NCBI GenBank assembly: GCA_049694415.1 | Contig: JBAVQV010000021.1 | Span: 1-54,166, forward strand | Direction of reading: 5' to 3' | DNA from: Dehalococcoidia bacterium | GTDB taxonomy: Bacteria > Chloroflexota > Dehalococcoidia > GIF9 > UBA5629 | DNA length: 54,166 bases | Shown here: positions 6,772 through 48,965 of the stretch, piece by piece | How the letters are laid out: every line of letters begins with the position of its first letter | Numbering within the stretch: position 1 is the stretch's first letter | The notes under the pieces: generated by a model | Database searches by the model: none | The model's input: the letters and a program-made list of their open reading frames with translations, nothing else | What the model was told of the DNA's origin: nothing | Translations under genes and position numbers: made by a program

Positions 6772-7803
6772 ATGTTGAAAGGTTTAACTGCAAGAAGAGA
6801 AGCTGTTCTGAAAATAATAGTCAGCGAATATGTCGATACGGCAGTACCGGTAGCTTCGGAAACTATTTTTCGTAATTACAAACTGGGTGTAAGTTCGGCA
6901 ACTATTCGTAATGATATGGCCTATCTTGAGGAGGCAGGCTATATTGCTCGCCCCCACACCTCAGCTGGCAGCGTGCCTTTGGATAAAGGTTATCGCCATT
7001 ACGTTGAGTCGTTGACTAAAAAGACTGAACTTAACGTGCAGGAACAAGATCGAATTCGAAAACTTTTCAGCGAGGTGGAAAAGGAATTTGAGAAATGGTT
7101 GAAGCTGGCAGCGGCTATCGCGGCAAGCCTGGTTAAAAATGCGGCTTTGGTTACGTTGCCCAAGCCGAGACAGTGCCGGTTTAAACACTTAGAATTGGTA
7201 GCCTTGCAAGAGTTCATGTCCCTAATGGTCTTGATACTTGGCGAGGCGATACTCAAGCGGCAGCTTTTATCCTTCGAGGAACCGGTAACGCAAGAACGGC
7301 TAGCAATTATGTCTAATAAGTTGAACGCCGTTTTTTCAGGATTAACGGGCTCCGAGATTTTGGCTAAGAAGTTGGAGCTTCCTTCGGAAGAGGCACAAGT
7401 GACTGAAGCCGTGATTGATATGATGTCTGCCGAGGACGAGTTGGAATACGAGCAACCTTATCTTGAAGGGTTGCGCTTAATGCTGGGACAGCCCGAGTTT
7501 GCTGAAAAGGACAGGATGTTGAGCATTATGGAACTGATGGAGACGAAGGATTGGCTTAGCTCAGCTTTCGGGCGGCGGTCGGACGATTTTGGAGTGCAGG
7601 TGGTGATTGGTGAAGAAAATCGAAATGAGACATTGCGTGATTTGAGCTTGGTTTTCAGCCGATATGGTATCCCTGACCAGATTGGCGGTACCATTGGTAT
7701 AATCGGCCCTACCCGTATGAATTATCGCAGAGCTATTTCTACAGTGGACTACATATCGGGGATATTGAGCGATTTAGTGACTGGAGTTAGCCGTAGCGAT
7801 TGA
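6772..7803 (+). CDS. hrcA: Heat-inducible transcription repressor HrcA
   Basis: The N-terminal winged helix (REAVLKIIVSEYVDTAVPVASETI...SSATIRNDMAYLEEAGYIARPHTSAGSVP) is diagnostic. The gene precedes grpE-dnaK. The ORF track begins at GTG 6763 inside CIRCE; ATG 6772 has better RBS spacing. Confidence 0.9.
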   Translation: MLKGLTARREAVLKIIVSEYVDTAVPVASETIFRNYKLGVSSATIRNDMAYLEEAGYIARPHTSAGSVPLDKGYRHYVESLTKKTELNVQEQDRIRKLFSEVEKEFEKWLKLAAAIAASLVKNAALVTLPKPRQCRFKHLELVALQEFMSLMVLILGEAILKRQLLSFEEPVTQERLAIMSNKLNAVFSGLTGSEILAKKLELPSEEAQVTEAVIDMMSAEDELEYEQPYLEGLRLMLGQPEFAEKDRMLSIMELMETKDWLSSAFGRRSDDFGVQVVIGEENRNETLRDLSLVFSRYGIPDQIGGTIGIIGPTRMNYRRAISTVDYISGILSDLVTGVSRSD

Positions 7804-7825: not shown

Positions 7826-8413
7826 TTGGCTGAAGAAAGGGAGACGTTTGATGATAAAGTATCTAATATGGCCGAGGTGCATGATAGCGAGTCTTTAGCA
7901 CAACTCTTGGCTCAGGAGAAGGAGAAAGCCGAAAGATATTTGGCCAACTGGCAGAGGGCTGAGGCAGATTTTAGAAACTACAAAACACGTGAAGAACAAG
8001 GAAAAAAAGATTTAGTAAACTGGGCTAACTCCACACTGGTCTGCGATATATTGCCAGTGCTTGATTCTTTTGACCGTGCATTTGAAGGGGTTACCCCTGC
8101 GGGTAAAGGCCTGAGTTGGATTACCGGCTTTAAACAAATTCAAAAAATGTTGTTAGATGTTTTAGGCAAACATGGGCTGACAGAAATGAAGTGCGTTGGC
8201 GAGACATTCGACCCGAGCCTTCATGAAGCAGTAGTTCAGCGCGATGGTGCGGAAGGTTTGATACTGGATGAGGTTCGAAAAGGATACATGATGAAAGACA
8301 GGTTGATTCGTGCGCCGCAAGTCGTGGTAGGGGCGGGTGGCGAATCACCGAACGCTGAAGCGGCTAAAGCGATTGAGGAAAATTCAATAAAGGAAACTGG
8401 GGCAGAAAAATAG
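7826..8413 (+). CDS. grpE: Nucleotide exchange factor GrpE
   Basis: 195 aa with the pattern YLANWQRAEADFRNYKTR...DILPVLDSFDRA...FDPSLHEAV. It has a TTG start 5 nt after GTAGGAGGC. Confidence 0.9.
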   Translation: MAEERETFDDKVSNMAEVHDSESLAQLLAQEKEKAERYLANWQRAEADFRNYKTREEQGKKDLVNWANSTLVCDILPVLDSFDRAFEGVTPAGKGLSWITGFKQIQKMLLDVLGKHGLTEMKCVGETFDPSLHEAVVQRDGAEGLILDEVRKGYMMKDRLIRAPQVVVGAGGESPNAEAAKAIEENSIKETGAEK

Positions 8414-8452
8414 GAACAATCATGAAAAATCTAGTGTGTGAAGGAGGATATA

Positions 8453-10375
8453 ATGGCTAAGGCAGTTGGTATTGATTTAGGGACTACTTTTAGTTTGGTA
8501 GCTGTTGTCGAGGGCGGTGAGCCAAAAATAATCCCCAATGCTGAAGGGGAAAGGCTAACACCTTCAGTAGTTGCCATTGATAAGAAGGGTGAACGGCTGG
8601 TGGGATTGTTAGCCAAGAGGCAAGCAATCACTAACCCCGAGAACACAATTTTTAGCATAAAGCGGCTGATGGGGCGCAAATTCAAAGACTCTGAAGTCCA
8701 GTATGACATAAAGCGGTTGCCTTACAAAATAGTCGAAGCCAGTAATGGTGATGCTTGGGTGGTGATGGGGGGCAAGAAGTATAGCCCGGCGGAAATCTCA
8801 GCCATGATTCTGCAGAAGCTGAAGATTGACGCTGAGGCTTACCTCGGCGAGAAGGTCATCGATGCGGTGGTTACGGTGCCGGCCTATTTTAATGACAGTC
8901 AGCGCCAGGCAACTAAGGATGCTGGCACGATTGCCGGGTTAAATGTGATACGTATAGTAAATGAGCCAACCGCTTCAGCTTTAGCTTACGGGCTCGATAA
9001 AAAGGGAGAGGAAACTATCGCAGTCTATGACCTCGGCGGTGGCACGTTCGACATTTCCATACTTGAACTTGGTGAAGGACAATTCCAAGTTAAGTCAACG
9101 AATGGTGATACTCATCTCGGCGGCGATGATATTGACCAAAGAATTATGGACTGGCTGTGTGATGAGTTTAAAAAGGAATCGGGCGTGGACTTGAAACAGG
9201 ACAGAATGGCGTTGCAGCGGCTAAAGGATGCCGCCGAGAAAGCCAAGCGTGAGCTATCAACAGTCGGTCAGACGGAGATAAATTTGCCTTTCATCACGGC
9301 TGATGCCTCTGGGCCCAAGCACATGAATATAACTCTGACACGAGCCAAGCTGGAGCAGTTATCCATGGAATTGCTGGAAAGAAGCATTGAGCCGTGCCGC
9401 AAAGCCTTAACTGACGCGAAACTCACTACGGCTCAGGTAACCGATGTGATTCTGGTCGGTGGGCAGACGAGGATGCCCAAGGTTCAGGATATGGTACGCC
9501 AGTTTTTTAGCAAAGAGCCGGTTAAAGGCGTTAATCCTGATGAGGTGGTGGCACTGGGTGCAGCTATCCAGGCTGGTGTGCTCAAGGGAGATGTGAGAGA
9601 TATTCTCCTGCTTGATGTCACACCTCTTACTTTGGGTATTGAGACGCTAGGTGGAGTAGCCACACCGCTTATTCCGCGGAATACTACTATACCTACCTCG
9701 AAGAGCCAGGTATTCAGCACAGCGGCCGATAATCAGGCTAGCGTGGAAATACATGTGCTGCAAGGCGAACGCCCAATGGCCCCCGACAATCGGACTTTAG
9801 GCCGTTTCATGCTAGACGGCATATTACCGGCCCCGAGAGGGGTTCCCCAGGTTGAGGTTACCTTTGACATTGATGCCAATGGCATCTTAAATGTTCGGGC
9901 CCAGGATAAAGGCACGGGCAAGGAGCAGAAGATAACCATTACTGCTTCCAGTGGTCTGAGCAAAGACGAAGTGGAGAAAATGAGGAGAGACGCAGAATCC
10001 CATGCTGCTGATGATGCTAGAAAGAAAGACGAGGTGGAAACCCGAAATACGGCTGATACACTCGTCTATACTGCTGAACGAACGCTAAGGGAGCAGGGTG
10101 ACAAGATTCCAGCAGACTTGAAACAGGAGTTGGAGGGCAAGATAGCTGCGGTACGCTCAGCTCTTCAAGGTACTGACACAAATTACATGCGCAGCGCCAC
10201 AGAAGATTTATCCAACGTCATGCAAAAAATCGGCTCCGCTGTGTACGGGCAAGCTGGTGCACCACCTCCACCGGGCGGAGAATCCGGCGGCGAAGCCCCT
10301 GGTGAAGCCGAGGGCGGACCTCCTCCTGGTGGCAGTGAAGAAGGTACTGTAGAGGGCGAGTTCAGAGAAGTATAA
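8453..10375 (+). CDS. dnaK: Chaperone DnaK (Hsp70)
   Basis: [12 protein letters not shown]..., DLGGGTFD and [11 protein letters not shown] are Hsp70 signatures. ATG 8453 is preferred over the upstream GTG 8438 because the GAAGGAGGA RBS lies just before it. Confidence 0.97.
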
Positions 10376-22286: not shown

Positions 22287-23096
22287 CTATGGTTTCTGGC
22301 AGCTGGGGCAGAAGTAGCTGCCGCGGTTTCTGATGGCCAGGCGCTGGATGGGAGTGCCGCACACAGGGCATGGCTTGCCGCCGCGGTGAGCCATGTGAAA
22401 GTTATCATGTGCCGTGCCCAATCGTCCATCAGGCCGTTTGTAAGTATCAACGCTGGCACCTTTGCTGTCAATGGCTGACCGCAGGACATCGATAATTGTT
22501 TGGTGCAGGTTCCTGATTTCTTGAGCTGACAGGCTGTTTGCTTGTCTTAACGGATGGATTCTGGCGGCGAATAGGGCTTCATCGGCATACATATTGCCTA
22601 TGCCGGCGAGGAAAGCCTGGTCGAGAAGAACAGCTTTTATCGGTGCCTGCCGTTTGTGCAGCCGTTCAGCCAGAGTTTCGGCGGTAAAACTCGGGGCTAG
22701 CGGTTCCGGTCCCAGCTTGCCGATAACGGACTGTTCATTTTCCAGTAGCCACAGCGCTCCCAGCCGCCTGCGGTCGATAAAGACAAGCTGGCTGCCGTTG
22801 TCAAGATGAAAGATAACTCTAGCGTAGCCGTCAAGTTGCTTTGGATTCAGCAGTAGAGCCCCGGTCATTTTGAGGTGGATAACCAGCACGTTATCGCCGG
22901 AAAGGCGGAAAATGAGATATTTACCGCGGCGCTCGAGGTCGTTTATGCTTTGCCCTATCAGTCCGCTGCGAAATTCCTCGACTGAAGGTTGTTTCACCGG
23001 CTTGGCATCGCAGACGATGATATCGGTGAATCGCCGGCCGATTATATGAGCAGAAAGCTCGTTCTTTATGGTCTCCACTTCAGGTAACTCAGGCAA
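22287..23096 (-). CDS. mutM: Formamidopyrimidine-DNA glycosylase (Fpg/MutM)
   Basis: PELPEVE N-terminus, H2TH region, and C-terminal zinc finger CPVCGTPIQRLAIRNRGSYFCPSCQ. A TTG start at 23096 gives M-PELPEVE and 269 aa. The ORF-track ATG at 23138 would bury the catalytic Pro. Confidence 0.9.
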   Translation of the reverse strand: MPELPEVETIKNELSAHIIGRRFTDIIVCDAKPVKQPSVEEFRSGLIGQSINDLERRGKYLIFRLSGDNVLVIHLKMTGALLLNPKQLDGYARVIFHLDNGSQLVFIDRRRLGALWLLENEQSVIGKLGPEPLAPSFTAETLAERLHKRQAPIKAVLLDQAFLAGIGNMYADEALFAARIHPLRQANSLSAQEIRNLHQTIIDVLRSAIDSKGASVDTYKRPDGRLGTAHDNFHMAHRGGKPCPVCGTPIQRLAIRNRGSYFCPSCQKP

Positions 23097-23233
23097 TGTT
23101 TGATAACCACCTTTAAACGAATTGCGGTTGGCATGCACTCGTATTTTAGCTTAAAGTGCTTGTGTGTTAAACATTTGCTGGGTATAATCTTGGATTAAAA
23201 TTAACCGCATATTCTAATTTAGCGGAAAGCAAG

Positions 23234-23968
23234 ATGAAAAACAGAGGACTACTTATGCTGGCTACTTGCATGGTGCTGGCTACTACGCTGGTAATAACGG
23301 GCTGCGCCAGTCCGGCTCAAGAACATGTCAACAAAGGTAATGCATATTTTAAGCAGGGGCAGTACGATGAAGCCGCTATGGAATACAGTAAGGCGGTCGA
23401 GCTTGACCCACAGCTTGCTGGCGGCTATAACGGCCGTGGGCTTGTCTATCAGACGAAAGGTCAGTTCGATGAAGCCATAGCCGACTTTGACACAGCGATT
23501 GAGCTGGAACCAACAAATGCCGAGTTACATTACAATCGTGGTAACGTATACCTTGAGAGAGGGCAATTTCAAACAGCTGTAGCTGATTATGACAAGGCTA
23601 TTGTGCTTAACCCAAAGTTTGCCATGGTTTACAACAACAGGGGGCAGGCTTATGCCGGTCAGATGCAATTTGACGGAGCCATAGCTGATTATAGTAAAGC
23701 TATCGAATTAGACCCGAAGCTGGCAGTGGCTTATGATAACCGTGGCCTCATGTATCGTGATAAAGGAGAGTTCGACCAGGCTATATCTGACTTCACCAAG
23801 GCTATTGAATTAGACCCAAAGCTAGCCAAGGCATATTTTAATAGGGGTTACGCCTATAACAAGAAGGGCGATAAGACCCAGGCAAAAGCTGATTTGGATA
23901 AGTGTATTGAAATATCCACCGACCCTGCGCTCACCAAAGCAGCCAAAGAGCTGCGAGAGAGATTGTAA
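23234..23968 (+). CDS. TPR-repeat lipoprotein
   Basis: Lipobox ITGC followed by six consecutive 34-aa TPR units (A..Y..AIELDP....AY.NRG..Y...G). Confidence 0.85.
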   Translation: MKNRGLLMLATCMVLATTLVITGCASPAQEHVNKGNAYFKQGQYDEAAMEYSKAVELDPQLAGGYNGRGLVYQTKGQFDEAIADFDTAIELEPTNAELHYNRGNVYLERGQFQTAVADYDKAIVLNPKFAMVYNNRGQAYAGQMQFDGAIADYSKAIELDPKLAVAYDNRGLMYRDKGEFDQAISDFTKAIELDPKLAKAYFNRGYAYNKKGDKTQAKADLDKCIEISTDPALTKAAKELRERL

Positions 23969-24131
23969 GAAGAAATTCGTGATTTTGACTTCGGGAAGTT
24001 CAGGCATGGTTTTCACCCGCCGATAATGCTTGCGCTGCCAATACTAACAAGCGATAACGGTTCTACCAGTAAAAGAGCTTTGCGAAGCGGAATTTGGGCG
24101 AGTGCCGAAGGCACGAACTTCTTATGCTGTG

Positions 24132-25433
24132 TTATATGAGCTGGTGAATATTTGAGGCCTTCCATGATTCTTTATTCTTTTTTTTATCAAAAGATGGAAT
24201 TGCATCAAAAGTAACTTCATCTTCATCTATTATATCAGGTGGCAAATCTGACTTATAACAGAAAAATGATTGCTCATCTTTCGCAATAATAAAACAGAAT
24301 GGATGGTCGCTCCGACCTAAACTTACTTTACCAACAAGTCCCTTTCTTACTTTGCGTTTCTTATATGACAAGTTCTTTAAGTCGTTCTCTTCACCCACTA
24401 GTTTGCTCCACTCAGTTCGGCAAATACTCAGTGCTTCTTTCAGAGAGGATGGCTCCTTATTACCAATGATTTTATTTAAATCATTAACAGTATTTATTAT
24501 AGACTCAGGTACAGTCCATCCTTTTTCATCTCTAACGTATTTGCATAGGACAAGGTGGGCTCTTGCTTCCTTGTATTTCCCCAGTTCCTTACAGAGCATT
24601 CCGATATCTACAAATAGTGATACCATAGATTCAAGTTTCAAATGACCACTAGCAGCTTGGTACATTAGTTTTAAAGCGTCTTCTCTGCGGCCTATATCTC
24701 TAACTACTTTTGCATACTCATAAAGCATCCACCAGTCAGGCTTATAACCACTACATAGATTTTGATAAATCTTTTCTGATTCAGGAAGGTTGCCAAGAAG
24801 ATGGTTTGCTAAGGCCTTAAGTCGCAGGAAGAACTTTTGTTGTTTGGGAAATCGTACTAAAATTTCATCGACTGTATTTATTGCTTCTTTTGCATCTCCT
24901 TTTTCAATAAGTCCATTTATACGGTAGTTATACCAGAGGGATTGGTCACTCCATCCTTCCCTACCCGAATCATCTGTCATAGATTTCGTACTAAGAGAAC
25001 CCGGATCAATTTTAACCACCCATTCATTAACAGTCTCCCAATGATTAGAAGACTTGGCTGATTTTAACACCTTAAAAACTATCATCTTTGCAGCTAAACC
25101 GTCAGGGTTCAAACTCATTATTCTTTTGGCTATCTCTACTACCTTTTCAAGAGGTTCTTCTTCATTGAATTTATCAAGTATCCCTTGGATGTAAGTCCAT
25201 ATAACTTCATTTCGACACCAATCGAAGCCAGGATATTTGACAATCAGTTCATCAGCAAGAACAATTGCCTCATCAAATAATTCTAGCTTCCTGAGACAAT
25301 GAAGAAGGCCCGCACCGTCAAACTTGTCCCCTGGTTCTTCCCATAAATTTCTATAGATTAGAAGAGCTTCTTTGTGATTCCCTGCTTTCCTGAATTCATT
25401 AGCCTTTTGTTTCTGTTCTGTTAAATCAATCAT
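24132..25433 (-). CDS. TPR-like helical-repeat protein with C-terminal degenerate cold-shock/OB-like domain
   Basis: 433 aa. About 350 aa are helical-hairpin repeats (A..Y..L repeat pattern). The last ~70 aa (GLVGKVSLGRSDHPFCFIIAKDEQSFFCYKSDL...DEDEVTFDAIPSFDKKKNKESWKASNI) follow the CSD beta-strand pattern but lack the RNP1/RNP2 aromatics. Confidence 0.55.
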   Translation of the reverse strand: MIDLTEQKQKANEFRKAGNHKEALLIYRNLWEEPGDKFDGAGLLHCLRKLELFDEAIVLADELIVKYPGFDWCRNEVIWTYIQGILDKFNEEEPLEKVVEIAKRIMSLNPDGLAAKMIVFKVLKSAKSSNHWETVNEWVVKIDPGSLSTKSMTDDSGREGWSDQSLWYNYRINGLIEKGDAKEAINTVDEILVRFPKQQKFFLRLKALANHLLGNLPESEKIYQNLCSGYKPDWWMLYEYAKVVRDIGRREDALKLMYQAASGHLKLESMVSLFVDIGMLCKELGKYKEARAHLVLCKYVRDEKGWTVPESIINTVNDLNKIIGNKEPSSLKEALSICRTEWSKLVGEENDLKNLSYKKRKVRKGLVGKVSLGRSDHPFCFIIAKDEQSFFCYKSDLPPDIIDEDEVTFDAIPSFDKKKNKESWKASNIHQLI

Positions 25434-25447
25434 ATTCTATAACTTAA

Positions 25448-26389
25448 CTATTTTTTGAAAACCTCACTTGTTGTCTTAAAATGCAGTTTTGCTACCTTTC
25501 TAAGTGACTCTTTCCCGTACATATCAACAAATTTCTTTGCATTTTCTATAACTGTCCGCGATGAACCTTTAGGCAAGCCAATTTTATATTCATCCGATAG
25601 TCTTGAGAGTTTTTCTAAGAATCTTGCTCGCGATAGAATCGATGCCGCTGCCACAGCTATATGCTGTTCCGCTTTATGCACTTGTATTAGTCTAATCCTT
25701 TTACCTTTTTCCTGAAGTTTCCCAAGGATAAAACTCTCATCTGCAAATTGGTCAGCGATTGCAACTTTACAATCTACCTTAGAAAGAATCTCTTCTATTG
25801 CTTTTGCATGCCCCCAGGCGAGTAATGTATTTAAATTTTTCTTTTCCTTTTTAAATTGTTCGTATAAGTCATTATATTTCTCTGGAGATATTTCGATAAT
25901 CGCAAAACGCCCTTTACATATTTTGGCTACCTCTTGAGCAAGTTCTAAGTTCTTACTATCACTAAGTTCTTTGCTATCCTTGACGCCACATGCGATCAGA
26001 GCTTTCGCAGATTGCTCATCTACATAGACACCAGCACTAACCAAGGGACCGAAATAATCGCCCTTACCAGATTCATCTGTACCAATTATGGGAAATCCTA
26101 ATTCAACACCCTTCTTATTTGAATCAAATGATATTCCTTTTCCCTCTATCAAGGTTTGGATTTTTATAGCATTTGCTCCACCTTTAAGTTGTGAATAATC
26201 AATTTTCAAGGCACCTTTTTTGTTCTGATAGATTCTAATTACTCCTGACCAGTCAAGAATAGATACGGTAAACTGCAAACCATAATCGATCAATTGATAA
26301 TCTGAAATATTGATATTATCGACTGCCAGAATCGATTTTATATGTTCATATATTTCTAGAAGTCTGTCGCCCTGCTTCATGTCATTCAT
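25448..26389 (-). CDS. RNase HIII-type ribonuclease H (N-terminal TBP-like domain plus RNase HII/HIII catalytic domain)
   Basis: 313 aa. IIGTDESGKGDYFGPLVSAGVYV is the RNase HIII active-site motif (D105, E106). IADQFAD and HKAEQHIAVAAASILSR supply the remaining acidic residues. An N-terminal domain of about 95 aa precedes the catalytic core, as in RNase HIII. Confidence 0.8.
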   Translation of the reverse strand: MNDMKQGDRLLEIYEHIKSILAVDNINISDYQLIDYGLQFTVSILDWSGVIRIYQNKKGALKIDYSQLKGGANAIKIQTLIEGKGISFDSNKKGVELGFPIIGTDESGKGDYFGPLVSAGVYVDEQSAKALIACGVKDSKELSDSKNLELAQEVAKICKGRFAIIEISPEKYNDLYEQFKKEKKNLNTLLAWGHAKAIEEILSKVDCKVAIADQFADESFILGKLQEKGKRIRLIQVHKAEQHIAVAAASILSRARFLEKLSRLSDEYKIGLPKGSSRTVIENAKKFVDMYGKESLRKVAKLHFKTTSEVFKK

Positions 26390-26392
26390 TCC

Positions 26393-27499
26393 TTACTTTG
26401 GGAGTAAATTGAAAAGGTCGTTGAAATAGTCAAATATTTCTTTTGTATCTTTAAATATGGTGTTGACCTTTTCCTCTGCCTCTTCTGGGGAATCAACTTT
26501 GGTAATTTTGCTTTCGTCGCTGTGCATCATAAAGTTTCTGTTCGTCTTGACACATACACCAATTTTTTCGAGCATTGTGTCTGCATGCTTTTCTTCATCA
26601 CAAATAGACTTTCTTTTTGAATTTTTTTTATCATACAGAGCGGAAAAATTGGCATCTTTGGTCTTGGGATAATCTGCTTTGAAAAGACCTATATTAACAA
26701 GAAGTTTTTTTGCAAATCCTTCAAAAGCTTTAGAAGCAGGCATTACTAGAGGGGAAAACTCAGGTAGAGGAATTTTAGTTAAGCAAAGGCATTCTGAAGC
26801 TACAAACCATTTCTGGTCGTAAGATTCAAGATAGGCATAGACATCTCCTATTTTGGTTTTTACACTATTCTCAGCCAACTCTATGAGTTGAGGAGTATAT
26901 TTAGCTGCAAAAAGCTTCAAATTCTTTTCATCGCTTGATATAAATCTGGCTATTACTTCTTTATCTGACGGGCTGGCAATCTTTTCGATCAGGTCACAGT
27001 TATCATTAAAAAGTTTATCCATTTTACCTTGAAGTAATAAAGTACCATTATCGTACTGTGTCAAGGTTAAAGAGGAATTATTTCTGGTGATTTTAGCTCT
27101 ATATTCGATAGCAGAGCTTGGACTTTCAGTAATTTCCACTGTTGTCTCAAGCGTATTTAAAGATTCTTTTATTTTCGTTCTGAGTTCAGGTAGCATAATG
27201 TCATATCTTGTTGCACATGCTTTAATTTCCGGTATCTTATGTTCAAGAAAAGACTGCGGGTTAGTCTCAATTTCTCGTTCCAGATTTTTAAACTCCTCTT
27301 TCAAGCTGTTATGTGGGCCTCCCAGTACGATGCTGCCAGTATGATATATAGTCACTATAGTCCTTTCCCGAATGTTAGATATTTCTAAACGCCAATCATT
27401 GTTGTTATCTTCGGAAGGTTTGACCTGGTACTTTTTCTCTTTGCAATACTCGATAAACACTTGAGATAGCTTTGTGGCATTTGAAATAGATTTAGACAT
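26393..27499 (-). CDS. RnlA/LsoA-like toxin: two TBP-like N-terminal repeats plus C-terminal HEPN RNase domain
   Basis: 368 aa. Two repeats end in (V/L)T(I/Q)Y..G(S/T)(I/L)(V/L)(L)(G/Q)G (TIVTIYHTGSIVLGG and LTLTQYDNGTLLLQGK). The C-terminal helical domain carries the Rx4H motif RNFMMH (R321-H326, nt 26522-26539), close to where I recall the Rx4H motif lying in E. coli RnlA. Confidence 0.6.
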   Translation of the reverse strand: MSKSISNATKLSQVFIEYCKEKKYQVKPSEDNNNDWRLEISNIRERTIVTIYHTGSIVLGGPHNSLKEEFKNLEREIETNPQSFLEHKIPEIKACATRYDIMLPELRTKIKESLNTLETTVEITESPSSAIEYRAKITRNNSSLTLTQYDNGTLLLQGKMDKLFNDNCDLIEKIASPSDKEVIARFISSDEKNLKLFAAKYTPQLIELAENSVKTKIGDVYAYLESYDQKWFVASECLCLTKIPLPEFSPLVMPASKAFEGFAKKLLVNIGLFKADYPKTKDANFSALYDKKNSKRKSICDEEKHADTMLEKIGVCVKTNRNFMMHSDESKITKVDSPEEAEEKVNTIFKDTKEIFDYFNDLFNLLPK

Positions 27500-27539
27500 C
27501 TCTTAAACCCCCTAAAGTATTTCTATGATATAACCTCTG

Positions 27540-27568
27540 ATATAACTTCTTTCATTACTTACTTCCAA
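27540..27568 (-). promoter_or_regulatory. Putative promoter of the AT-rich operon
   Basis: On the minus strand: TTGGAA, a 17-nt spacer, then TTATAT, about 40 nt upstream of the first gene. The RBS AGGGGG lies 8 nt before the ATG. Confidence 0.35.
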
Positions 27569-27691
27569 AGGCATTGCACCTAACAGCAGCATATACAAAC
27601 CTTGAGTTCGCCTAATCAGTTCTACTTTCTTGAATCCTAGCACTGGCGCTATTGGCTATAAAGCCCTCCATCTCCTTTTTGCGGTGGAATG

Positions 27692-30406
27692 CTATTCCAT
27701 CTCGGCCCAGTTTTTGCCCAGCTTGATGTCTATCTTTAGCGGCACGCTGAGCTTCAAGGCTTGAGGCATTATTCTGGACACCAGCTCTTTCATCTGGTCT
27801 ATTTCCTCAGGAGGCACTTCGAAGACAAGCTCGTCGTGAACTTGAAGAGTCATTTTGCTCCGCAGGTTCAACTTTTCCATCTCGCGATGTAGGTTGACCA
27901 TAGCGATTTTGATGATATCGGCTGATGTGCCATGCACCGGCATGTTTATTGCCATTCGCTCAGCAGCTTCTCTGACCTGCCGGTTTGGTGAGTTAATTTC
28001 AGGTATGTAGCGCCGTCTGCCTAACACCGTCTGCACATACCCTCGCTCTCTGGCCTGGCTCTTGGTGGCTTCGATATAGTCTTTGACCCCGGGGTATTTC
28101 TCGAAATAGGCAGTTATGAATTGGGAAGCTTCCTCCCGGCTGAAACTGGTAGCCTGCTCCAGGCCGTAGTCGCTCATGCCGTAAATAATGCCGAAGTTGA
28201 CCGTTTTAGCTACTCGGCGCATCTCTGAAGTCACCTTGTCTGGAGAGACGTTGAAGATGCGGGAAGCAGTGGCGGCATGAACATCCTCGTCTCTGAGGAA
28301 GGTGGCTATAAGCTCCGGGTCCTGTGAGATGTGGGCTAACGCCCTGAGGTCGATTTGAGAGTAATCGACGGATAGAAGTTGCCACCCCGGCTCGGCGATG
28401 ATAGCTTGTCTTATTTTGCCACCCAGCTCGCTTCTTATCGGGATGTTCTGCATGTTCGGCTCGCTGGAGGAAAGCCGGCCGGTAGTTGTGCCTGTCTGGT
28501 TGAAGCTGGTATGCAGCCTGCCCGTTTTGGGGTTGACCAGCGCGCAGAAGGCATCGGTGTAGGTCGACTTCAACTTGGCTAGCTGGCGGTATTGCAGGAC
28601 AAGTTCAATTATGGGGTGAGTGCCCTTTAGTTCCTCGAGCGCCGAGGCTTCGGTGGAATAGCCACTTTTTGTTTTGCGCGGCTTGGGAAGCTTCAGCTCT
28701 TCATAGAGGATTCTGGACAACTGCTGTGACGAGTTTATGTTGAATCTATAGCCGAGACTGTTGTAAACCTCTGCTTCCAGTCTGAGCATCTCCTTCCCCA
28801 GGCTGTGAGACATATCTCGGAGCAGTTCTACATCTACGGCCACACCATTTCTTTCCATGGCTACCAGCACCGGGACTAAAGGCATCTCCACTTCGCTGAA
28901 AAGTTGCCATAATCCCTCTTCTCGTAGTTCGCTGTCGAGCACGCTCTTAAGCCTTAGAGTAATATCGGCATCAGCGCAGGCATAGTCGGCAACCTGTTCT
29001 GTTGTTACCATGGCCATAGAGAGCTGCTTGGCTCCTTTGCCGATTAAGTCGGTGATGGGCGTCATCTCGACTCCGAGTTTATTGAAAGCCAGCGCTTTGA
29101 GCCCGATGGATTTTTCGCCCAGCAGATAGGCGGCGAGCATGGTATCGAAGTTTAAATTCTGAAGCTTTATGCCGTATTCAGCGAGTACCGTCATATCGAA
29201 TTTGCCATTCTGAGCTATTTTGGGGATTTTGGCGTCTTCAAGCACCGGCTTAAGCCTGGCAATGACTTGAGACAATGGCAGCTGGGATATCTGGCTCAGC
29301 CCACGATGTCCCAACGGTATGTAGTAGGCTTCACCAGGCGTTGATGATAGTGAGATGCCGACTAGCTCACAAGCCATAACTTCTTTAGCCGAAGTCTCCA
29401 GGTCAACAGCGAATTCTTTGGCGGCTTGCAACTGGATAATAAGCTTATCCAAATCACGGTCGGTGCTAATTATGTGGTAGTCCTTGCTATAGGTTGGTTT
29501 ACCGGAGACCTCAGTTGGTGCCTTCTCAATTTCCTCGGGCAGTCTGGATAGCAATTGGACGAATCCCAGTTCGCGGAAGAGTTCGACCACTTGATTTCTG
29601 TCGTAAGTGGTGACCTGGCAAGCATCCAGATTCAAGGTTATGGGCACATCGGTAACAAGTGTTGCCAGCTCCTTGTTTCGAAGAACTCGGTCTTTATAGT
29701 CGCGCAGCGAAGTCTGTAACTTCTCAGGTGTTATTTCGTCAATATGGTCGTAGATGCCCTCGAGGCTGCCGAATTGGCGCAGTAACTTGGCGGCTGTCTT
29801 GTCGCCGATGCCGGGGATACCGGGGATGTTATCAGAAGGGTCGCCGGTGAGAGCTTTGAAGTCGGTGAGTTGGCTGGGAGATATGCCGTATTTCTGCTCG
29901 ACACCTGACTCATCGTAGATTACCGTATCGCTGAAGCTTCGCCTGGGCGACATTACTTTGGTGCTGGGTGAGACAAGCTGGAGCATATCATTGTCGCCGG
30001 TAACGATCAGGGTGTCTACGTTTCGCTGGGTAGCCTGTCGGCTCAGAGTACCTAGAACGTCATCAGCCTCGTAGCCGTCGATTTCGAAGGTGGGAATATG
30101 GAAGGCATCTACAAGTTGATGAACTCGCTGTATCTGGCTGATAAGCTCTTCGGGGGCTTTGGGGCGCTGAGCCTTGTAATCCTCGAATTTTTCGTGTCTG
30201 AAGGTCGGTCCGGGACGGTCGAAGGCAATAGCCCAGTGGGTTGGCTTGATTTCATTCAGCACCTTGAGCAAGGTGCTGGCGAAGCCCTGGACGGCATTGA
30301 CCATCTCCCCGGTCTTGGATATTGTTAGCGGAGGGATAGCATGGAAAGCCCGATGAACCAGAGCATTTCCATCGAAGAGCAAGAGCAATGGTTTTTCTTT
30401 AACCAT
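27692..30406 (-). CDS. polA: DNA polymerase I
   Basis: 904 aa with a 5' nuclease domain (LLLFDGNALVHRAFHA), a 3'-5' exonuclease motif (AVDLETS) and the polymerase motifs DYSQIDLR and QVHDELVFE. Confidence 0.97.
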   Translation of the reverse strand: MVKEKPLLLLFDGNALVHRAFHAIPPLTISKTGEMVNAVQGFASTLLKVLNEIKPTHWAIAFDRPGPTFRHEKFEDYKAQRPKAPEELISQIQRVHQLVDAFHIPTFEIDGYEADDVLGTLSRQATQRNVDTLIVTGDNDMLQLVSPSTKVMSPRRSFSDTVIYDESGVEQKYGISPSQLTDFKALTGDPSDNIPGIPGIGDKTAAKLLRQFGSLEGIYDHIDEITPEKLQTSLRDYKDRVLRNKELATLVTDVPITLNLDACQVTTYDRNQVVELFRELGFVQLLSRLPEEIEKAPTEVSGKPTYSKDYHIISTDRDLDKLIIQLQAAKEFAVDLETSAKEVMACELVGISLSSTPGEAYYIPLGHRGLSQISQLPLSQVIARLKPVLEDAKIPKIAQNGKFDMTVLAEYGIKLQNLNFDTMLAAYLLGEKSIGLKALAFNKLGVEMTPITDLIGKGAKQLSMAMVTTEQVADYACADADITLRLKSVLDSELREEGLWQLFSEVEMPLVPVLVAMERNGVAVDVELLRDMSHSLGKEMLRLEAEVYNSLGYRFNINSSQQLSRILYEELKLPKPRKTKSGYSTEASALEELKGTHPIIELVLQYRQLAKLKSTYTDAFCALVNPKTGRLHTSFNQTGTTTGRLSSSEPNMQNIPIRSELGGKIRQAIIAEPGWQLLSVDYSQIDLRALAHISQDPELIATFLRDEDVHAATASRIFNVSPDKVTSEMRRVAKTVNFGIIYGMSDYGLEQATSFSREEASQFITAYFEKYPGVKDYIEATKSQARERGYVQTVLGRRRYIPEINSPNRQVREAAERMAINMPVHGTSADIIKIAMVNLHREMEKLNLRSKMTLQVHDELVFEVPPEEIDQMKELVSRIMPQALKLSVPLKIDIKLGKNWAEME

Positions 30407-43820: not shown

Positions 43821-43896
43821 GGGGCTGTAGCTCAATCGGGAGAGCGTTTGACTGGCAGTCAAAAGGTAGTGGGTTCGAATCCCATCAGCTCCACCA
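43821..43896 (+). tRNA. tRNA-Ala (anticodon GGC)
   Basis: 76 nt. The acceptor GGGGCTG/CAGCTCC includes the G3:U70 alanine identity pair. The D arm is GCTC/GAGC, the anticodon stem TTTGA/TCAAA with loop CTGGCAG, and the T loop is GGTTCGAATCC. CCA is encoded. Confidence 0.9.
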
Positions 43897-44271: not shown

Positions 44272-44458
44272 ATGCCCCATCAATTTGTGCACCAAATGCA
44301 AGAATCTGCGGTTTATGGTAAGGGTATGCCCAATGGGATGAAGAGGGAAAAGTGTGGTGAAATTGTCCTTTGGATATAAGGAGATTTTGAGGATAAGGTG
44401 ACACCGCTCGGAAAGCCCTGCATAATTAAGTCTTAGAAACCATGTGCATATACAATGA

Positions 44459-46420
44459 TTACCTATTTTTTCGATAGTACGTGTCGAAGGTCTTCAAAGC
44501 TTTCCCTACATCTGGTAAATATTGCAGAGCACCTTGTGCTTTTGATAAAGCCAATGAGATTAGCTTCGCATCTGCTGTATCTTGGATTCCTTGCAAATTG
44601 ACGATTATACGTTCCCTCAGAGCGGTATTACCTTTTGCGATTGCACATGCGCCAAATATACATAGTAGGATTGCTGCCTCCTGGACGATATTGCTTGTCC
44701 CTTTCCCGGCAGCGTCCATACCTATCTTCATTATTTGATCAGCAGCATTTATTGGAACATCAAATATACCATTCTCAATACATTTGAGGTTAACCTCAGC
44801 TAACTTCGCCGCAATCTTTGATGCCATGTCATCGTTACCAAGCTCCACAGCTTTGATTTCAATATTGACTAAATGTTTGAACACATCATACATGACCGGT
44901 TTCTGGATATTTTCAGCAGCCTTGATTCCGATATCTCTTATTGCCAGTGGAGCCATTGTTATAGAGTCTTCAAGTCCCTTATCAAAAGAGATTAAAGCAA
45001 AGTTGCTCAGGAAATCCACCATTTGCCTTGTTGGATAGTCAATCTTGTTATCTACACATTTCTCGGCAATGGTACACATATAGTATATAGCCTTAGACAT
45101 GGTACCATCCAAACGTTTAGAAGCCGATGCTCTGCTACGGGCAAGGGGCAATTTAAAGAGTTTGGCATATTCTCTTATTGTACTCTCTACACCCCTCTCA
45201 TTGGCTATCATCACCATTTTATGTATAAGTTCTGCCGATTCTCCAGCGGTATAGCCATTTCCCTCTCCAGCGAAATGTACTCCGAGATTAGCCATATCCA
45301 TGATTGCACTGTCTAATGTACCAGTTAACAAACTTCGCTCTGCGGTCTTGATGCCAATATTACCAATTGAATTCACAACAGACCAGCCTAGGCCCGAGCG
45401 TTTGGTGGCAATCACATGACCAATCATGGCCAAGGCACGTACAGCTTTGCGTTCAACTACAAGGATTCTACCTTCACCTTCTCCTGCCATTTTCCCTATA
45501 TCACATAAGCAGTCTATGACTTTATCTACGTGCTCTAGCTCTTTATTTGCCGCCTTTCTGCCAATTTCCTCCAAATATTCAACTACCAATTCTGATATGT
45601 GGACTAGCTGTTTAGAGGTGGCCTCTTTGCCTATATCCCCCAGGTATGTAACCACATGAAACGGTGCTCTTGGGTCTTCTATGGTGGCTACACCTATATC
45701 ACTTAGTCTTTGGAGTATAGTACAGCCAACATCCTTATCTTCTAACCTTGCTTGCCTATTATTTAAAAAATGGGATTGCATTTCACCATCAATGACATCA
45801 TAATTCTTCGTATTAATAACTTCATGATTTATTTCACGAAATACCCGTATGCCCCTATTAAAAGTATCATAGTCTTTAAGAGCAAATGCGCTCATAATCA
45901 TATTATCTATGGTAGCAATTGTCTCAGGCTCTTCTTTTATGTTGGTATTAAGCTGTTTGACCGCACTTTTCTTTAAAGCAACAAGTATTTGCTCAGGATT
46001 AAGCTTCCTTCCGAAATGGATGAAATAAGGAACCAAAAGAAATAGGCATACTGCAGCAAGGGTAAGAGAAGCCTTAGCGCCATAAATGGTAGGTTGGGCA
46101 AGAACCCAAAAAGGTAGGAAAACAGCTATTATAAAAAGAGAGATGTATGATATTGTAATTCTATCTGAGAAACCGGAGGATATCCGGTAAGAGTAGCGCG
46201 AGAACATCTGTATTATTATTAGTGAAATAGTAAAGACAAGAGCCAGAATGGCAGATAGGGACTGAGCAATGGTCGAGAGTAGGTAGAACATTTGGGTTCT
46301 TTCCTGCACGATGCCATTGGGCGCTATGTTCACGACAGGTGGAATATTCAGTACGGGGCACATCCAGATGCCTACAACTACAACTGCAAGTGGTATGAGT
46401 ACGAACAAGCCCTTGTTCAT
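44459..46420 (-). CDS. Membrane-anchored helical-repeat protein (HEAT/ARM-like), unknown function
   Basis: 653 aa. About 5 N-terminal TM helices precede some 9 degenerate repeats carrying L..IG..A (LSDIGVATIE, LGDIGKEATS, LEEIGRKAAN, LCDIGKMAGE, LAMIGHVIAT, IGNIGIKTAE, IRDIGIKAAE, IMKIGMDAAG). Confidence 0.5.
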   Translation of the reverse strand: MNKGLFVLIPLAVVVVGIWMCPVLNIPPVVNIAPNGIVQERTQMFYLLSTIAQSLSAILALVFTISLIIIQMFSRYSYRISSGFSDRITISYISLFIIAVFLPFWVLAQPTIYGAKASLTLAAVCLFLLVPYFIHFGRKLNPEQILVALKKSAVKQLNTNIKEEPETIATIDNMIMSAFALKDYDTFNRGIRVFREINHEVINTKNYDVIDGEMQSHFLNNRQARLEDKDVGCTILQRLSDIGVATIEDPRAPFHVVTYLGDIGKEATSKQLVHISELVVEYLEEIGRKAANKELEHVDKVIDCLCDIGKMAGEGEGRILVVERKAVRALAMIGHVIATKRSGLGWSVVNSIGNIGIKTAERSLLTGTLDSAIMDMANLGVHFAGEGNGYTAGESAELIHKMVMIANERGVESTIREYAKLFKLPLARSRASASKRLDGTMSKAIYYMCTIAEKCVDNKIDYPTRQMVDFLSNFALISFDKGLEDSITMAPLAIRDIGIKAAENIQKPVMYDVFKHLVNIEIKAVELGNDDMASKIAAKLAEVNLKCIENGIFDVPINAADQIMKIGMDAAGKGTSNIVQEAAILLCIFGACAIAKGNTALRERIIVNLQGIQDTADAKLISLALSKAQGALQYLPDVGKALKTFDTYYRKNR

Positions 46421-46611
46421 CGCCTTGTACTAGAGTGGCTAAAGTACAAATCCAAAGTTTGTCTTTTTTTGCTTTCAGTAAATGCCCCAAGTTATTCTAC
46501 CACTATTTATGCTGGTGTTGATATATATAAGCCTTTCTGACCTTTTGCACTCTCTGACATGGTTACCCAAGTTTAATCCCATATAATCGTGGAGAGTCAT
46601 GAGAAATACGG

Positions 46612-46621
46612 CCGGTGGATA
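46612..46621 (+). repeat. Integrase-tail core repeat, degenerate copy
   Basis: CCGGTGGATA lies within ACGGCCGGTGGATAACATTAG, which resembles the ...AGTCCGGTGGATAGATTGATGCATTAG units. Confidence 0.5.
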
Positions 46622-46717
46622 ACATTAGGATATAGCTTCTTTGTATTTGGACTGATTTTCAGTGGGCAGGTCAGCCGATGTATATGACAATGCCAATTAG
46701 GTACTTTGTAGTATCCT

Positions 46718-47068
46718 CTATGATGTTTTGCTACTCCTTCTCTTCATTATCGTGCCAATCTTTATTCCAACATCATAACTAATGAATGCATACGCTACAA
46801 GAATGGCAATAATTCCAAATATAGGATACCTTGGTAATAGCACGACTGCTAACGCAACAAATCCTAGAAATAGCGCAACATTATCGAAACTGAAGTCGGC
46901 TAAAAATACAGCAATTCTAGAATGCCGAAATAGCATAATTATCAAAAATGATACTAACAGAAAGACTGCTAAGATAATGTCTATTATTTGCCATACTCCA
47001 CTCATTAAAAAGGCAAAAGCAAAAAGAGCTAATGCTATGCCGAGTTGTGTTTTCGCAGACTGAATCAT
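46718..47068 (-). CDS. Hypothetical 4-TM membrane protein
   Basis: 116-aa hydrophobic ORF with the RBS GGAGG upstream of the ATG. Confidence 0.45.
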   Translation of the reverse strand: MIQSAKTQLGIALALFAFAFLMSGVWQIIDIILAVFLLVSFLIIMLFRHSRIAVFLADFSFDNVALFLGFVALAVVLLPRYPIFGIIAILVAYAFISYDVGIKIGTIMKRRSSKTS

Positions 47069-47162
47069 CGCCGACCTCCTAGTATGTATTTATTTATGAA
47101 TATAGTGACCTGCCCCAAGTCATTATAGCACTCAAGACTAACTATACGCCCACATATTTCGT

Positions 47163-47183
47163 AATGGAATACCACTAACGTAT
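47163..47183 (+). repeat. Decayed integrase box-II remnant (pairs with 51667-51687)
   Basis: AATGGAATACCACTAACGTAT against AATGGAATGCCACTAACGTAT (20 of 21). It reads RNGIPLTY, compared with FLRNGANPFEL in the integrase fragment. Confidence 0.55.
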
Positions 47184-47236
47184 CAGGAAAGAGTGTGCTA
47201 GAATATGTTTCAAGCGGCAGTATTTAATTCTGGAGG

Positions 47237-47467
47237 TTGATGATGAATAAAGAAATCATCAAGAAGCTATTGCAGGAGCAGAAGGAAGAGAGACAGCATC
47301 AGCTTAAGTTCATAAGAAACACAAAAGTCTTCTATCAGAAGCTAAAGGATGTGGGGTTTCAGCCATTGGGTTCTCTGTTAAGTTTAATCGCTACTTGGGA
47401 GAAGAACCTATCCATGGTTGAAAAAGAGATTAATGAGCTCGAGCAGGCGCTAAAGGATTATGAGTAA
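47237..47467 (+). CDS. Hypothetical 76-aa coiled-coil protein
   Basis: Charged helical ORF preceded by GGAGG. Confidence 0.35.
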   Translation: MMMNKEIIKKLLQEQKEERQHQLKFIRNTKVFYQKLKDVGFQPLGSLLSLIATWEKNLSMVEKEINELEQALKDYE

Positions 47468-47499
47468 GGAATCCCTGGTCCCTTGTTCTATTTACACAA

Positions 47500-47964
47500 T
47501 TATGGATTATGCTCATAAGCATGAGTATACCTTGACCAAACGCTTACAGTTTTTTTAACAATTGTTTTCTGGGGTATGAGTTTGTTTGGTGGAATCACGT
47601 GTGTGTCCACATTAACCTGACCTCTAAGAGGTACATGTGCGGTAACCACCTCTTCTTCATTTGGAGCTAGCTGTATGCTTTCAATTGTTGATTCCTTTTC
47701 AATACCATTGTCAAAAACAAAATTTAGGCTGAATGTACCAGTGAGATTATCAGTGTTTTGGATGCTTTGTTGTGCTTCCCTCCAAGGAATTAGATACAGT
47801 ATGGGCTTGTTCACAACTGTTACTGGTGAAGTCTCAAAGGAATAAGGTTCAGATGTGAAGTGAATCTCGGTCACATCTACAGGCACGATTTCCCACCGCC
47901 AAATAAGAAGTGCTAATACAATTAATACTACAATGCCGATAATGGTGTCTTTCATAGTCTCCAA
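47500..47964 (-). CDS. Hypothetical single-pass membrane protein with beta-rich ectodomain
   Basis: 154 aa with an N-terminal TM helix (IIGIVVLIVLALLIW). Confidence 0.4.
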   Translation of the reverse strand: METMKDTIIGIVVLIVLALLIWRWEIVPVDVTEIHFTSEPYSFETSPVTVVNKPILYLIPWREAQQSIQNTDNLTGTFSLNFVFDNGIEKESTIESIQLAPNEEEVVTAHVPLRGQVNVDTHVIPPNKLIPQKTIVKKTVSVWSRYTHAYEHNP

Positions 47965-48020
47965 ATATTTTCCAATCCTAATTATTCAAGCTGCTGGCGT
48001 ACAAGCCAGGAAATGTTCAA

Positions 48021-48194
48021 CTATTGTATTCGCCTATGTCTCACCTTATTGATATCGCTAAGCCTTATATAAATTTTACCACTCGGATTCGGACGATATG
48101 CGACAATCACCCCATTTGCAATCCAATTACGTAACGTTTGAGGATGTATCCTCAACCTTCTTGCAGCCTCTCTCAGTGTAAGAAACTCCGCCAT
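48021..48194 (-). CDS. Excisionase-type (MerR-like) helix-turn-helix DNA-binding protein
   Basis: 57-aa ORF below the ORF-track cutoff: MAEFLTLREAARRLRIHPQTLRNWIANGVIVAYRPNPSGKIYIRLSDINKVRHRRIQ. This is the classic Xis-family HTH pattern. Confidence 0.65.
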   Translation of the reverse strand: MAEFLTLREAARRLRIHPQTLRNWIANGVIVAYRPNPSGKIYIRLSDINKVRHRRIQ

Positions 48195-48359
48195 TTTGAT
48201 ATATTTTATATAGTTTTATAACGTTTGTCAAAGATTTGATAACTACCAAGGCAAATTACGTTCAAAAGATTGTTAACCAAGTGTTTTTAATAGCGCTATG
48301 TTGTGGTAGGTGTCGTATTCAAATGGTTTGGCTAAGAATCAAAAGGTAAGATTGCAGCC

Positions 48360-48373
48360 AGTCCGGTGGATAG
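48360..48373 (+). repeat. Integrase-tail core repeat, copy 2
   Basis: Exact AGTCCGGTGGATAG. The wider unit AATCAAAAGGTAAGATTGCAGCCAGTCCGGTGGATAGATTGATGCATTAG closely matches copy 4. Confidence 0.8.
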
Positions 48374-48527
48374 ATTGATGCATTAGGGTACGAGGCGGTG
48401 GAGAGTAATAGGAAGTGTGGGCTGGTGGATATACTAAAATGAATTTTGTTTAATGTCTAAAGATGGCTTTCGCTGGGGGACCTTGAACCTCATATTAACA
48501 GACTATGCGGCAATCGATGCCCTGGAA

Positions 48528-48683
48528 TTAAGTTACCTCGCCTGAAAGTGCCCTGCGCAATGTCTTATTTCCACATTTTGGACAAGGGGCTTCTTTCACT
48601 AGTTTCCCCTTAGGAACAGCAACTTTGCCTTTAAAATCACAGTTCCCGCAAACGACTGCTTCTTGATAAGTTTCATCGCTCAT
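48528..48683 (-). CDS. Small zinc-ribbon protein
   Basis: 51-aa ORF below the track cutoff: MSDETYQEAVVCGNCDFKGKVAVPKGKLVKEAPCPKCGNKTLRRALSGEVT (CxxC...CxxC). The RBS AAGGAGA lies upstream. Confidence 0.45.
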   Translation of the reverse strand: MSDETYQEAVVCGNCDFKGKVAVPKGKLVKEAPCPKCGNKTLRRALSGEVT

Positions 48684-48965
48684 TTCTCTATCTCCTTGCC
48701 TTGGTCATAAATATTATATCATACTGATAATATCATTCTAGTGTCGATCGCTTTGTTAGCCCGAATGTATTACTCTAGATGAGTGCCAATTCAAAATCGA
48801 AATTCTTCCCACACGCGTTGCTCCGGTCTCGCTGGTCAGATCTGCATAAGTTTTTAGGCATCCCGGCTTGTGATGTGGACGCTATTTCTATCGTTTGACT
48901 ATGAATCAAACGGTATAAATAAACGTGGTTGCTCTTGGTCACTGTAACTTTAGGATGTGGTAGCT

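Follow-up and report, generated by a model that had tools for sequence, protein, structure and literature searches.

The 54,166-nucleotide stretch analysed here, called the window (positions 1 to 54,166 of contig JBAVQV010000021.1, assembly GCA_049694415.1, from a Dehalococcoidia bacterium of the Chloroflexota), encodes an RnlA-type RNA-cutting protein without RnlB. This protein is neither an orphan toxin nor the remnant of a degenerate toxin-antitoxin (TA) module; it is the product of the first gene of a mobile cassette, in which that gene (gene A) is followed by a gene for RNase HIII (gene B) and by a gene for a protein of TPR repeats joined to a cold-shock-like OB barrel (gene C). As all four parts that give the TOTE systems, a class of microbial defence known from computational prediction, their name (TPR, OB, TBP and Effector) are present, the three genes very probably form one co-functional cassette of TOTE type. 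Including its leader and trailer the cassette spans 24058-27584 (-), 3.5 kb, and we propose, with a probability of roughly 0.6, that it is a self-contained, horizontally mobile conflict cassette, probably directed against phages, whose defence works broadly as described in the Discussion. An earlier note, made from the letters of the window alone, had read gene A as a toxin of RnlA type that lacks its antitoxin; the toxin type and the missing antitoxin hold, but the RNase HIII gene, which the note did see, is not the mere occupant of the antitoxin slot that it was taken for, and the third gene was missed.

Results

Gene A is an RnlA/LsoA-type protein by sequence and model

Gene A encodes 368 residues, close to the 357 of E. 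coli RnlA (MG1655), as the earlier note had remarked. One of the three Pfam domains of RnlA is found above its gathering cut-off, RnlA-toxin_DBD (PF19034), at residues 208-311 (33.0 bits against a cut-off of 27, E = 8.6e-8). RnlA_toxin_N (PF19417; residues 9-72, 13.1 bits) and RnlA_toxin (PF15935; 18.3 bits) stay below their cut-offs of 24 and 27; residues 125-172 draw weak matches to DUF3378 and RnlA_toxin, and relatives in which A is fused to B do pass the PF15935 cut-off, unlike gene A of the window. A phmmer search of the PDB returned RnlA as the sole match. In the AlphaFold2 (AF2) model (pLDDT 79), for which 38 homologues were used, two alpha/beta TBP-like units are followed by a helical C-terminal domain. 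The ten best Foldseek matches of the model in the PDB are RnlA or LsoA without exception (E 3e-9 to 1e-4), headed by E. coli RnlA over about 370 aligned columns (E = 3e-9) and followed by the NRD-HEPN fragment 7aex and LsoA 5hy3 (TMt 0.56 each), with nothing significant beyond. Sequence identity in the structural alignment is about 16%. Profile matches and model together identify gene A as encoding a full-length RnlA/LsoA-type protein in which two TBP-like domains precede a HEPN domain, the order seen in RnlA and LsoA.

The two N-terminal repeats noticed in the sequence before, IYHTGSIVLGG (Y52-G61) and QYDNGTLLLQG (Y149-G158), close the two alpha/beta units of the model; the N-terminal domain of RnlA aligns with TBP-like domain 1 in both hhalign and Foldseek, and hhalign puts the second repeat on the RnlA segment HITTGKLQIQG. 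In the family alignment by which invariance was judged (n=38 sequences), T147, Q148, G152, T153, Q157, G158 and K159 are invariant. For the C-terminal domain the model gives the HEPN domain of RnlA, and the motif RNFMMH (R321-H326), which had been suspected of being the Rx4H pair, sits where RnlA carries R318-x4-H323; R321, F323, M324, M325, H326, S327 and D328 do not vary. Aligned with RnlA, K257 pairs with R255 and E260 with E258, and both are as invariant as R321 and H326, K257 being a conservative replacement of the RnlA arginine. In RnlA itself the R255, E258 and Rx4H residues are experimentally essential (PMC8266594). K257, E260, R321 and H326 are the putative catalytic residues of gene A, whose product we predict to be a HEPN endoribonuclease effector. 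An independent profile search of 1.84 billion representative proteins with gene A matched only 235 representative clusters, and almost all full-length representatives carry R-x4-H, mostly as R[NHC]xxxH, near residue 320.

The coordinates of the cassette, its domains and its flanks are collected in Table 1.

Table 1. Features of the three-gene cassette and its flanks in the window
Feature	Position (nt)	Strand	Extent, evidence or remark
Gene A, RnlA/LsoA-family protein, 368 aa	26393-27499	(-)	Open reading frame and family matches
Gene A, TBP-like domain 1	27248-27481	(-)	aa 7-84; AF2 alpha-beta4-alpha; ends Y52..G55....G60G61
Gene A, TBP-like domain 2 (NRD equivalent)	26978-27217	(-)	aa 95-174; AF2 beta-alpha-beta4-alpha; ends Y149..G152....Q157G158
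Gene A, helical HEPN domain (RnlA 'DBD' equivalent)	26411-26962	(-)	aa 180-363; PF19034, Foldseek
Gene A, Rx4H HEPN motif	26522-26539	(-)	R321-N-F-M-M-H326
Gene B, RNase HIII, 313 aa	25448-26389	(-)	Open reading frame and family matches
Gene B, N-terminal domain	26105-26389	(-)	About 95 aa; divergent, probably TBP-like
Gene B, catalytic domain	25463-26092	(-)	aa 100-309; D105, E106, D213, E241
Gene C, TPR and cold-shock-like OB protein, 433 aa	24132-25433	(-)	Open reading frame and family matches
Gene C, TPR superhelix	24360-25433	(-)	aa 1-358; TPR_14, Foldseek
Gene C, five-stranded cold-shock/S1-like OB barrel	24141-24347	(-)	aa 363-431; AF2 model
Conserved cassette leader	27500-27584	(-)	About 85 nt 5' of the ATG alike across phyla; farther upstream unrelated
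Putative promoter	27563-27568 and 27540-27545	(-)	TTGGAA, 17-nt spacer, TTATAT
Ribosome-binding site	27508-27513	(-)	AGGGGG, in the leader
Conserved 3' trailer	24058-24131	(-)	About 75 nt; two small hairpins, then a T-rich tract; probably terminator
polA	27692-30406		One flank of the cassette
TPR lipoprotein gene	23234-23968	(+)	Other flank of the cassette; fpg next

Genes B and C

The open reading frame (ORF) that begins 3 nt after gene A had already been called an RNase HIII of 313 residues, and this identity is borne out: gene B scores 201 bits with the NCBIfam model TIGR00716 (rnhC; equivalog cut-off 161, E = 2.2e-59), matches Pfam RNase_HII (E = 1.6e-31) and finds the RNase HIII structures 4py5, 2d0a and 3asm in the PDB. 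As all 23 cassette homologues keep the DEDE residues D105, E106, D213 and E241 unchanged, gene B is predicted to encode an active enzyme. In its catalytic domain, DEDE residues and overall length it resembles housekeeping RNase HIII (rnhC; Geobacillus stearothermophilus 2D0A, Thermovibrio 4PY5). In contrast, the 75 residues before the start of the PDB profile match (residue 76) fail to align with the N-domains of canonical RNase HIII, and the gene travels only with A and C, occurs in archaea and is fused to an RnlA-like protein in relatives. The N-terminal domain is probably TBP-like; the Pfam model TBP-TOTE matches it weakly, in 5 of the 23 members (best E = 6.9e-4).

Gene C follows after 14 nt. 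Along its full length it matches the PADLOC model PDLC01170, 'TPR repeats containing protein fused to cold shock-like domain (OB-fold)' (E = 1.4e-23), and it matches Pfam TPR_14 (E = 1.5e-9); Foldseek returns TPR superhelix proteins. All 42 of its 42 homologues match DUF7017 and 24 of them match S1CSD-TOTE-2 (best E = 3.2e-5), which scores 18.4 bits on the gene C of the window, below the cut-off of 27. The AF2 model (pLDDT 90) ends in five strands that form a barrel at pLDDT of about 88-93. The conserved residues F379, C380, F381, I382, F391 and C392 appear from the sequence to lie at RNP1/RNP2-like positions, and we predict that gene C is the sensor or scaffold of the cassette.

The three genes are linked across two domains of life and under purifying selection, with A and B fused in distant relatives

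Gene A has 388 homologues, and the best 120 of the 388 are 65-91% identical to it. They come from Dehalococcoidia, WS2, Petrotoga, Spirochaetia, Sumerlaeota, Bacteroidota, Planctomycetales, Nitrospirota and WOR-3 among the bacteria, and from Methanophagales, ANME-2, Methanothrix, Methanospirillum and Aenigmarchaeota among the archaea. In every locus long enough to tell, gene B lies directly after gene A, and in nearly all such loci gene C follows gene B in the same order and on the same strand, an arrangement that spans Chloroflexota, WS2, Spirochaetia, Bacteroidota, Planctomycetota, Nitrospirota, WOR-3, Deltaproteobacteria and methanogenic/ANME archaea. With a single exception, a locus in which A and B are 77 nt apart, the A-B and B-C gaps measure -5 to +26 nt. 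The identities of A, B and C drop in step, from 83/86/85% down to 26/40/29%. Each of the three genes is under purifying selection (omega 0.10-0.26; about 0.2 for A).

The profile search also yielded more distant relatives of 580-775 residues, about 21 representatives, whose N-terminal part matches the profile of gene A. Nine of the ten that were scanned with Pfam end in an RNase HII/HIII domain and are A-B fusions, and in both of the two contigs examined the gene next to the fused one is a homologue of gene C (58% and 29% identity). Fusion of A to B with C following points strongly to A and B working together physically and to C being their constant partner. Relatives of gene A of intermediate size, 450-510 residues, also occur (P0297, P0298, P0312, P0321, P0323, P0330 and P0355); P0297, the sole one scanned with Pfam, carries an extra C-terminal part without a Pfam domain, and fusions to alternative effectors or partners may exist.

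Gene C is missing from the loci of Petrotoga (L001) and Methanospirillum (L032), and in a third locus (L019) it is truncated and joined to unrelated sequence; gene A keeps its Rx4H motif in all three. The survival of an intact A where C has been lost speaks against a constitutively toxic A and against C as a classical antitoxin. On one Bacteroidetes chromosome reconstructed from a metagenome (L004/L005/L013, at about 8068-9367) a disrupted frame splits gene C into ORFs of 120 and 286 residues, a pseudogene or an assembly error, next to intact A and B. A complete A-B-C set is present in a cultured and publicly deposited isolate, Reichenbachiella agariperforans DSM 26134 (L029, NZ_FRAA01000001.1:21894-34943; 46/51/39% identity).

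An RnlB-type antitoxin or other hidden small gene was not found

A tblastn search with E. coli RnlB in the window and 33 related loci gave a best E of 2.2, and the comparison set of about 35 homologous loci holds neither an RnlB-like gene nor a conserved small ORF, in agreement with the earlier note, which had found no convincing small ORF in the upstream leader (192 nt by our measurement, 190 nt there) or between the genes. An Rfam scan of 23000-28500 matched no RNA family.

Three kinds of candidate were rejected. A 43-residue ORF in the leader (27512-27643) clusters with ORFs in seven other loci, with which it has only the last 16 codons in common. In L008 the shared 16-codon mini-ORF, MPLEVSNERGYIIEIL, has lost both start codon and frame, in L015 the frame, and most of its substitutions are non-synonymous; we read it as promoter and ribosome-binding-site DNA. 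A 50-residue ORF (24013-24165) overlapping the end of gene C varies between 32 and 60 residues across loci and owes its likeness to the hairpin-bearing trailer. Embedded or antisense ORFs recur within A in 11 of 18 loci and within C in 14 of 18, yet no dip in synonymous diversity accompanies them.

The cassette carries its own leader and trailer

The leader shared across phyla contains the ribosome-binding site and a putative promoter; a consensus promoter scan did not flag the leader, and the assignment of the promoter is an inference. In the window only, and in none of the other copies examined, a 12-nt tandem duplication (GTTATATCAGAG / GTTATATCATAG) at 27528-27545 (-) doubles the putative -10 element. 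The trailer is kept in cassettes of WS2, Spirochaetia, Dehalococcoidia and other hosts, and two alternative self-complementary versions of its first hairpin occur, GTGCC/GGCAC and GCCT/AGGC. The trailer is probably the terminator of the cassette; a scan for terminators passed it over, and taken by itself the window copy folds no better than shuffled sequences. It could be more than a terminator, the copies being too similar to reveal covariation. The trailer can also fold as a long outer stem around the two small hairpins.

The cassette is mobile and occupies a variable site

In the window the cassette stands out by its low GC (0.36-0.40 in its kilobases, 0.45-0.53 in the adjoining ones), and cassettes elsewhere have a GC of 0.30-0.40 in all but four loci, against 0.28-0.58 in their flanks. 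The synonymous divergence (dS) between cassettes of different bacterial phyla is 0.23-0.86, and that between bacterial and archaeal copies about 1. Low dS between copies together with a GC of their own shows recent horizontal spread between phyla and between domains.

Relatives of the window locus, obtained from a metagenome scan with the neighbouring Fpg protein, allowed the insertion site to be compared. In six of them (PolA 84-89% identical) the site is empty and consists of polA, a spacer of 37-49 nt and the lipoprotein gene. In L037 a cassette is inserted at this same site, between polA and fpg as in the window, and upstream of it (7190-7640) lies a relic of the 3' end of an MNT gene. Two further relatives carry other cargo at the site: in L057 (4802-8187) a HEPN+MNT pair with two more, unassigned genes, one of them coding for 621 residues with a GNPPW motif, and in L056 (623-3604) a 993-residue protein of SF1 helicase, PLD and Zn-ribbon parts. 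These observations point to the polA/lipoprotein intergenic site as a small hotspot with turnover of cargo. Elsewhere the neighbours of the cassette include a type III restriction-modification system, HicAB pairs with SIR2, and an integrase fragment with DUF3800, PIN and a reverse transcriptase of the diversity-generating retroelement (DGR) type. Defence genes are usually marked by a variable hotspot whose cargo is of the defence or TA kind, and from the present hotspot and the defence and TA neighbours, which lend contextual support, we infer a defence role.

Between the trailer and the stop codon of the lipoprotein gene, at 23987-24007 (-) in the window and also in L037, lies a short relic that resembles the 5' end of an fpg gene (peptide MPELPEVKIT). 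It matches the start of the real fpg, about 900 nt away, at 23 of 36 nt and is absent from the relatives with an empty site, which suggests that the cassette came by recombination from a genome in which it adjoined fpg. Far from the cassette, a second low-GC stretch (44400-48900, 0.39-0.42) beside tRNA-Ala(ggc) (43821-43896) may be another acquired island; it holds an ORF of 653 residues (44459-46420, -) and two small ORFs without a Pfam match.

Discussion

RnlAB and LsoAB are type II TA modules and anti-T4 defences, known as RNase LS. The product of gene A shares with E. coli RnlA its length, its domain order, the position of the Rx4H motif and the glutamate at E260 (E258), and differs from it in low overall identity, in two Pfam domains left below their cut-offs and in K257 in place of R255. 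The surroundings of the gene are another matter. As the defining antitoxin is absent and no PADLOC model matches gene A, the cassette is not an RnlAB module, and its proteins differ also in being very strongly conserved instead of fast-evolving. A further likeness is that E. coli RnlA also depends on an RNase H enzyme. RNase HI binds RnlA at its second TBP-like domain, the NRD, and is needed both for activating RnlA and for its inhibition by RnlB (PMC5308261). In the cassette, in contrast, the RNase H is encoded in cis or fused, it is of type HIII instead of HI, and a third component, the TPR and cold-shock domain (CSD) protein, is added.

Anantharaman et al. (2013, PMC3710099) had noted that HEPN domains of the RNase LS family occur fused to RNase H or TBP-like domains and inferred that the RNA of RNA:DNA duplexes is their target. 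TOTE conflict systems (TPR, OB, TBP, Effector), as far as they are presented in a preprint (bioRxiv 10.1101/2025.09.15.676423) that cites Aravind, Iyer and Burroughs (2022), combine a TPR-CSD fusion with TBP proteins and often with RNase H domains. The cassette has the corresponding parts, namely a gene C that joins TPR to OB/CSD, TBP-like domains in A and probably in B, and linked nuclease effectors, the HEPN domain of A and the DEDE enzyme of RNase H fold in B. The assignment to this class follows the citing preprint and the names of Pfam models; the cassette may be the archetypal operon or a variant of it. The same preprint describes TALON, which consists of YprA helicase, NERD nuclease, TPR-CSD and TBP and is reported mostly from Chloroflexota. 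TALON and the cassette have in common a TPR-CSD fusion protein, proteins with TBP domains and an RNase H-fold domain, and differ in that the cassette has neither YprA helicase nor NERD nuclease and in that its RNase H is intact, whereas that of TALON is described as inactivated.

We propose the following mechanism. The product of gene C would serve as sensor and scaffold, its CSD binding single-stranded nucleic acid and its TPR array holding the partners or recognising a protein of the invader. The TBP-like domains of A, and probably the N-terminus of B, would bind RNA:DNA hybrid or duplex arising from the replication or transcription of the invader, and B would cut the RNA strand of such hybrids. 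By analogy with RNase HI on the NRD of RnlA, B may dock on A and switch its HEPN domain into the active canonical dimer; free E. coli RnlA rests as an inactive non-canonical dimer, and the canonical HEPN dimer is needed for cutting RNA (PMC8266594). A would then degrade mRNA, with RNA being cleaved by both nucleases, and the infection, or the cell, would be stopped. Control would lie in a conformation gated by partner and ligand and not in a labile antitoxin of the RnlB type.

That RNase HIII gates the HEPN RNase of A is a tentative suggestion, drawn from the precedent of RNase HI and RnlA and from the finding that an RNase H is hard-wired to an RnlA-like protein by operon or fusion. The most specific form of the proposal, an RnlA system free of antitoxin in which docked RNase HIII is the obligate activator and RNA:DNA hybrid or single-stranded nucleic acid is the trigger, perceived through the TBP-like domains and TPR-CSD, is possible and we would not put it higher than that.

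Several observations weigh against a mobile TOTE-type defence cassette. No copy of gene A was found in plasmid, phage and IMG/VR collections; a search of PHROGs gave nothing meaningful, and no convincing direct or inverted repeats or target-site duplication were found around the cassette. A PADLOC scan matched neither A nor B, the Pfam TOTE models (TBP-TOTE, S1CSD-TOTE-2) stay below their gathering cut-offs on the proteins of the window, and an hhalign comparison of the gene B profile with that of gene A gave no signal for a TBP-like N-domain in gene B. Gene C is not strictly indispensable, A and B persisting in three loci without an intact copy. Housekeeping genes are among the neighbours, including polA and fpg in the window and in L037, which could hint at a role in replication or repair. 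In the literature we found no experimental work on the TOTE class or on any member of the cassette.

It is unlikely, in our judgement, that the cassette is a non-canonical type II TA system in which the RnlA-like A is constitutively active and either RNase HIII or the TPR-CSD protein has replaced RnlB as antitoxin. The toxin gene does come first with its partner directly downstream, as in rnlAB, homologues are named 'type II toxin-antitoxin system RnlA family toxin' by NCBI, and TA pairs lie near other cassettes. However, B has kept an invariant DEDE tetrad under strong purifying selection as befits an enzyme, the A-B fusions of many relatives are hard to square with a labile antitoxin that is degraded separately, and neither the three loci in which A and its Rx4H motif have outlived an intact C nor the inactive resting state of free E. 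coli RnlA (PMC8266594) suits a constitutively active toxin.

The neighbouring polA and fpg raise the question of a housekeeping module for nucleic acids, serving the removal of RNA:DNA hybrids or primers or the quality control of RNA and having no part in conflict. In Bacillota RNase HIII serves replication and repair, and the place of the cassette between polA and fpg would suit such a role, which we nevertheless hold to be very unlikely. Close relatives with the same polA-fpg neighbourhood show at this site either nothing or cargo of the defence or TA kind, the GC of the cassette is anomalous and its distribution over two domains is patchy with dS below 1, and a mere 235 representative clusters among 1.84 billion proteins hardly describe a housekeeping function. 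Restriction-modification, TA, integrase and DGR neighbours at other loci, and an Rx4H RNase of the HEPN kind, typical of conflict systems (PMC3710099), likewise speak for conflict. The least probable reading, an orphan or decaying RnlA toxin beside which RNase HIII lies by coincidence, would agree with the failure to find an RnlB-like gene anywhere but is contradicted by the conserved linkage of A and B in every testable locus, by their fusions and by an omega of about 0.2 for A, and can be dismissed.

We thus favour a mobile conflict cassette of TOTE type. The need of RnlA for RNase HI, in activation as in inhibition by RnlB, is left mechanistically unexplained in two studies of RnlA (PMC5308261, PMC8266594). 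The cassette, in which the RNase H is always linked or fused and no antitoxin occurs, is a cleaner system in which to study the gating of a HEPN RNase by an RNase H. Being compact (3.5 kb) and highly conserved, having its own leader with a putative promoter and a probable terminator, and occurring in at least one cultured isolate, it is also a practical entry point to the TOTE class. The very low synonymous divergence between its copies makes it a clear example of the recent spread of a candidate defence module between domains. If RNase HIII does prove to be an obligate activator, the cassette would show in natural, hard-wired form the dependence of E. coli RnlA on RNase HI, in a defence module that has recently moved between bacterial phyla and into methanogenic/ANME archaea.

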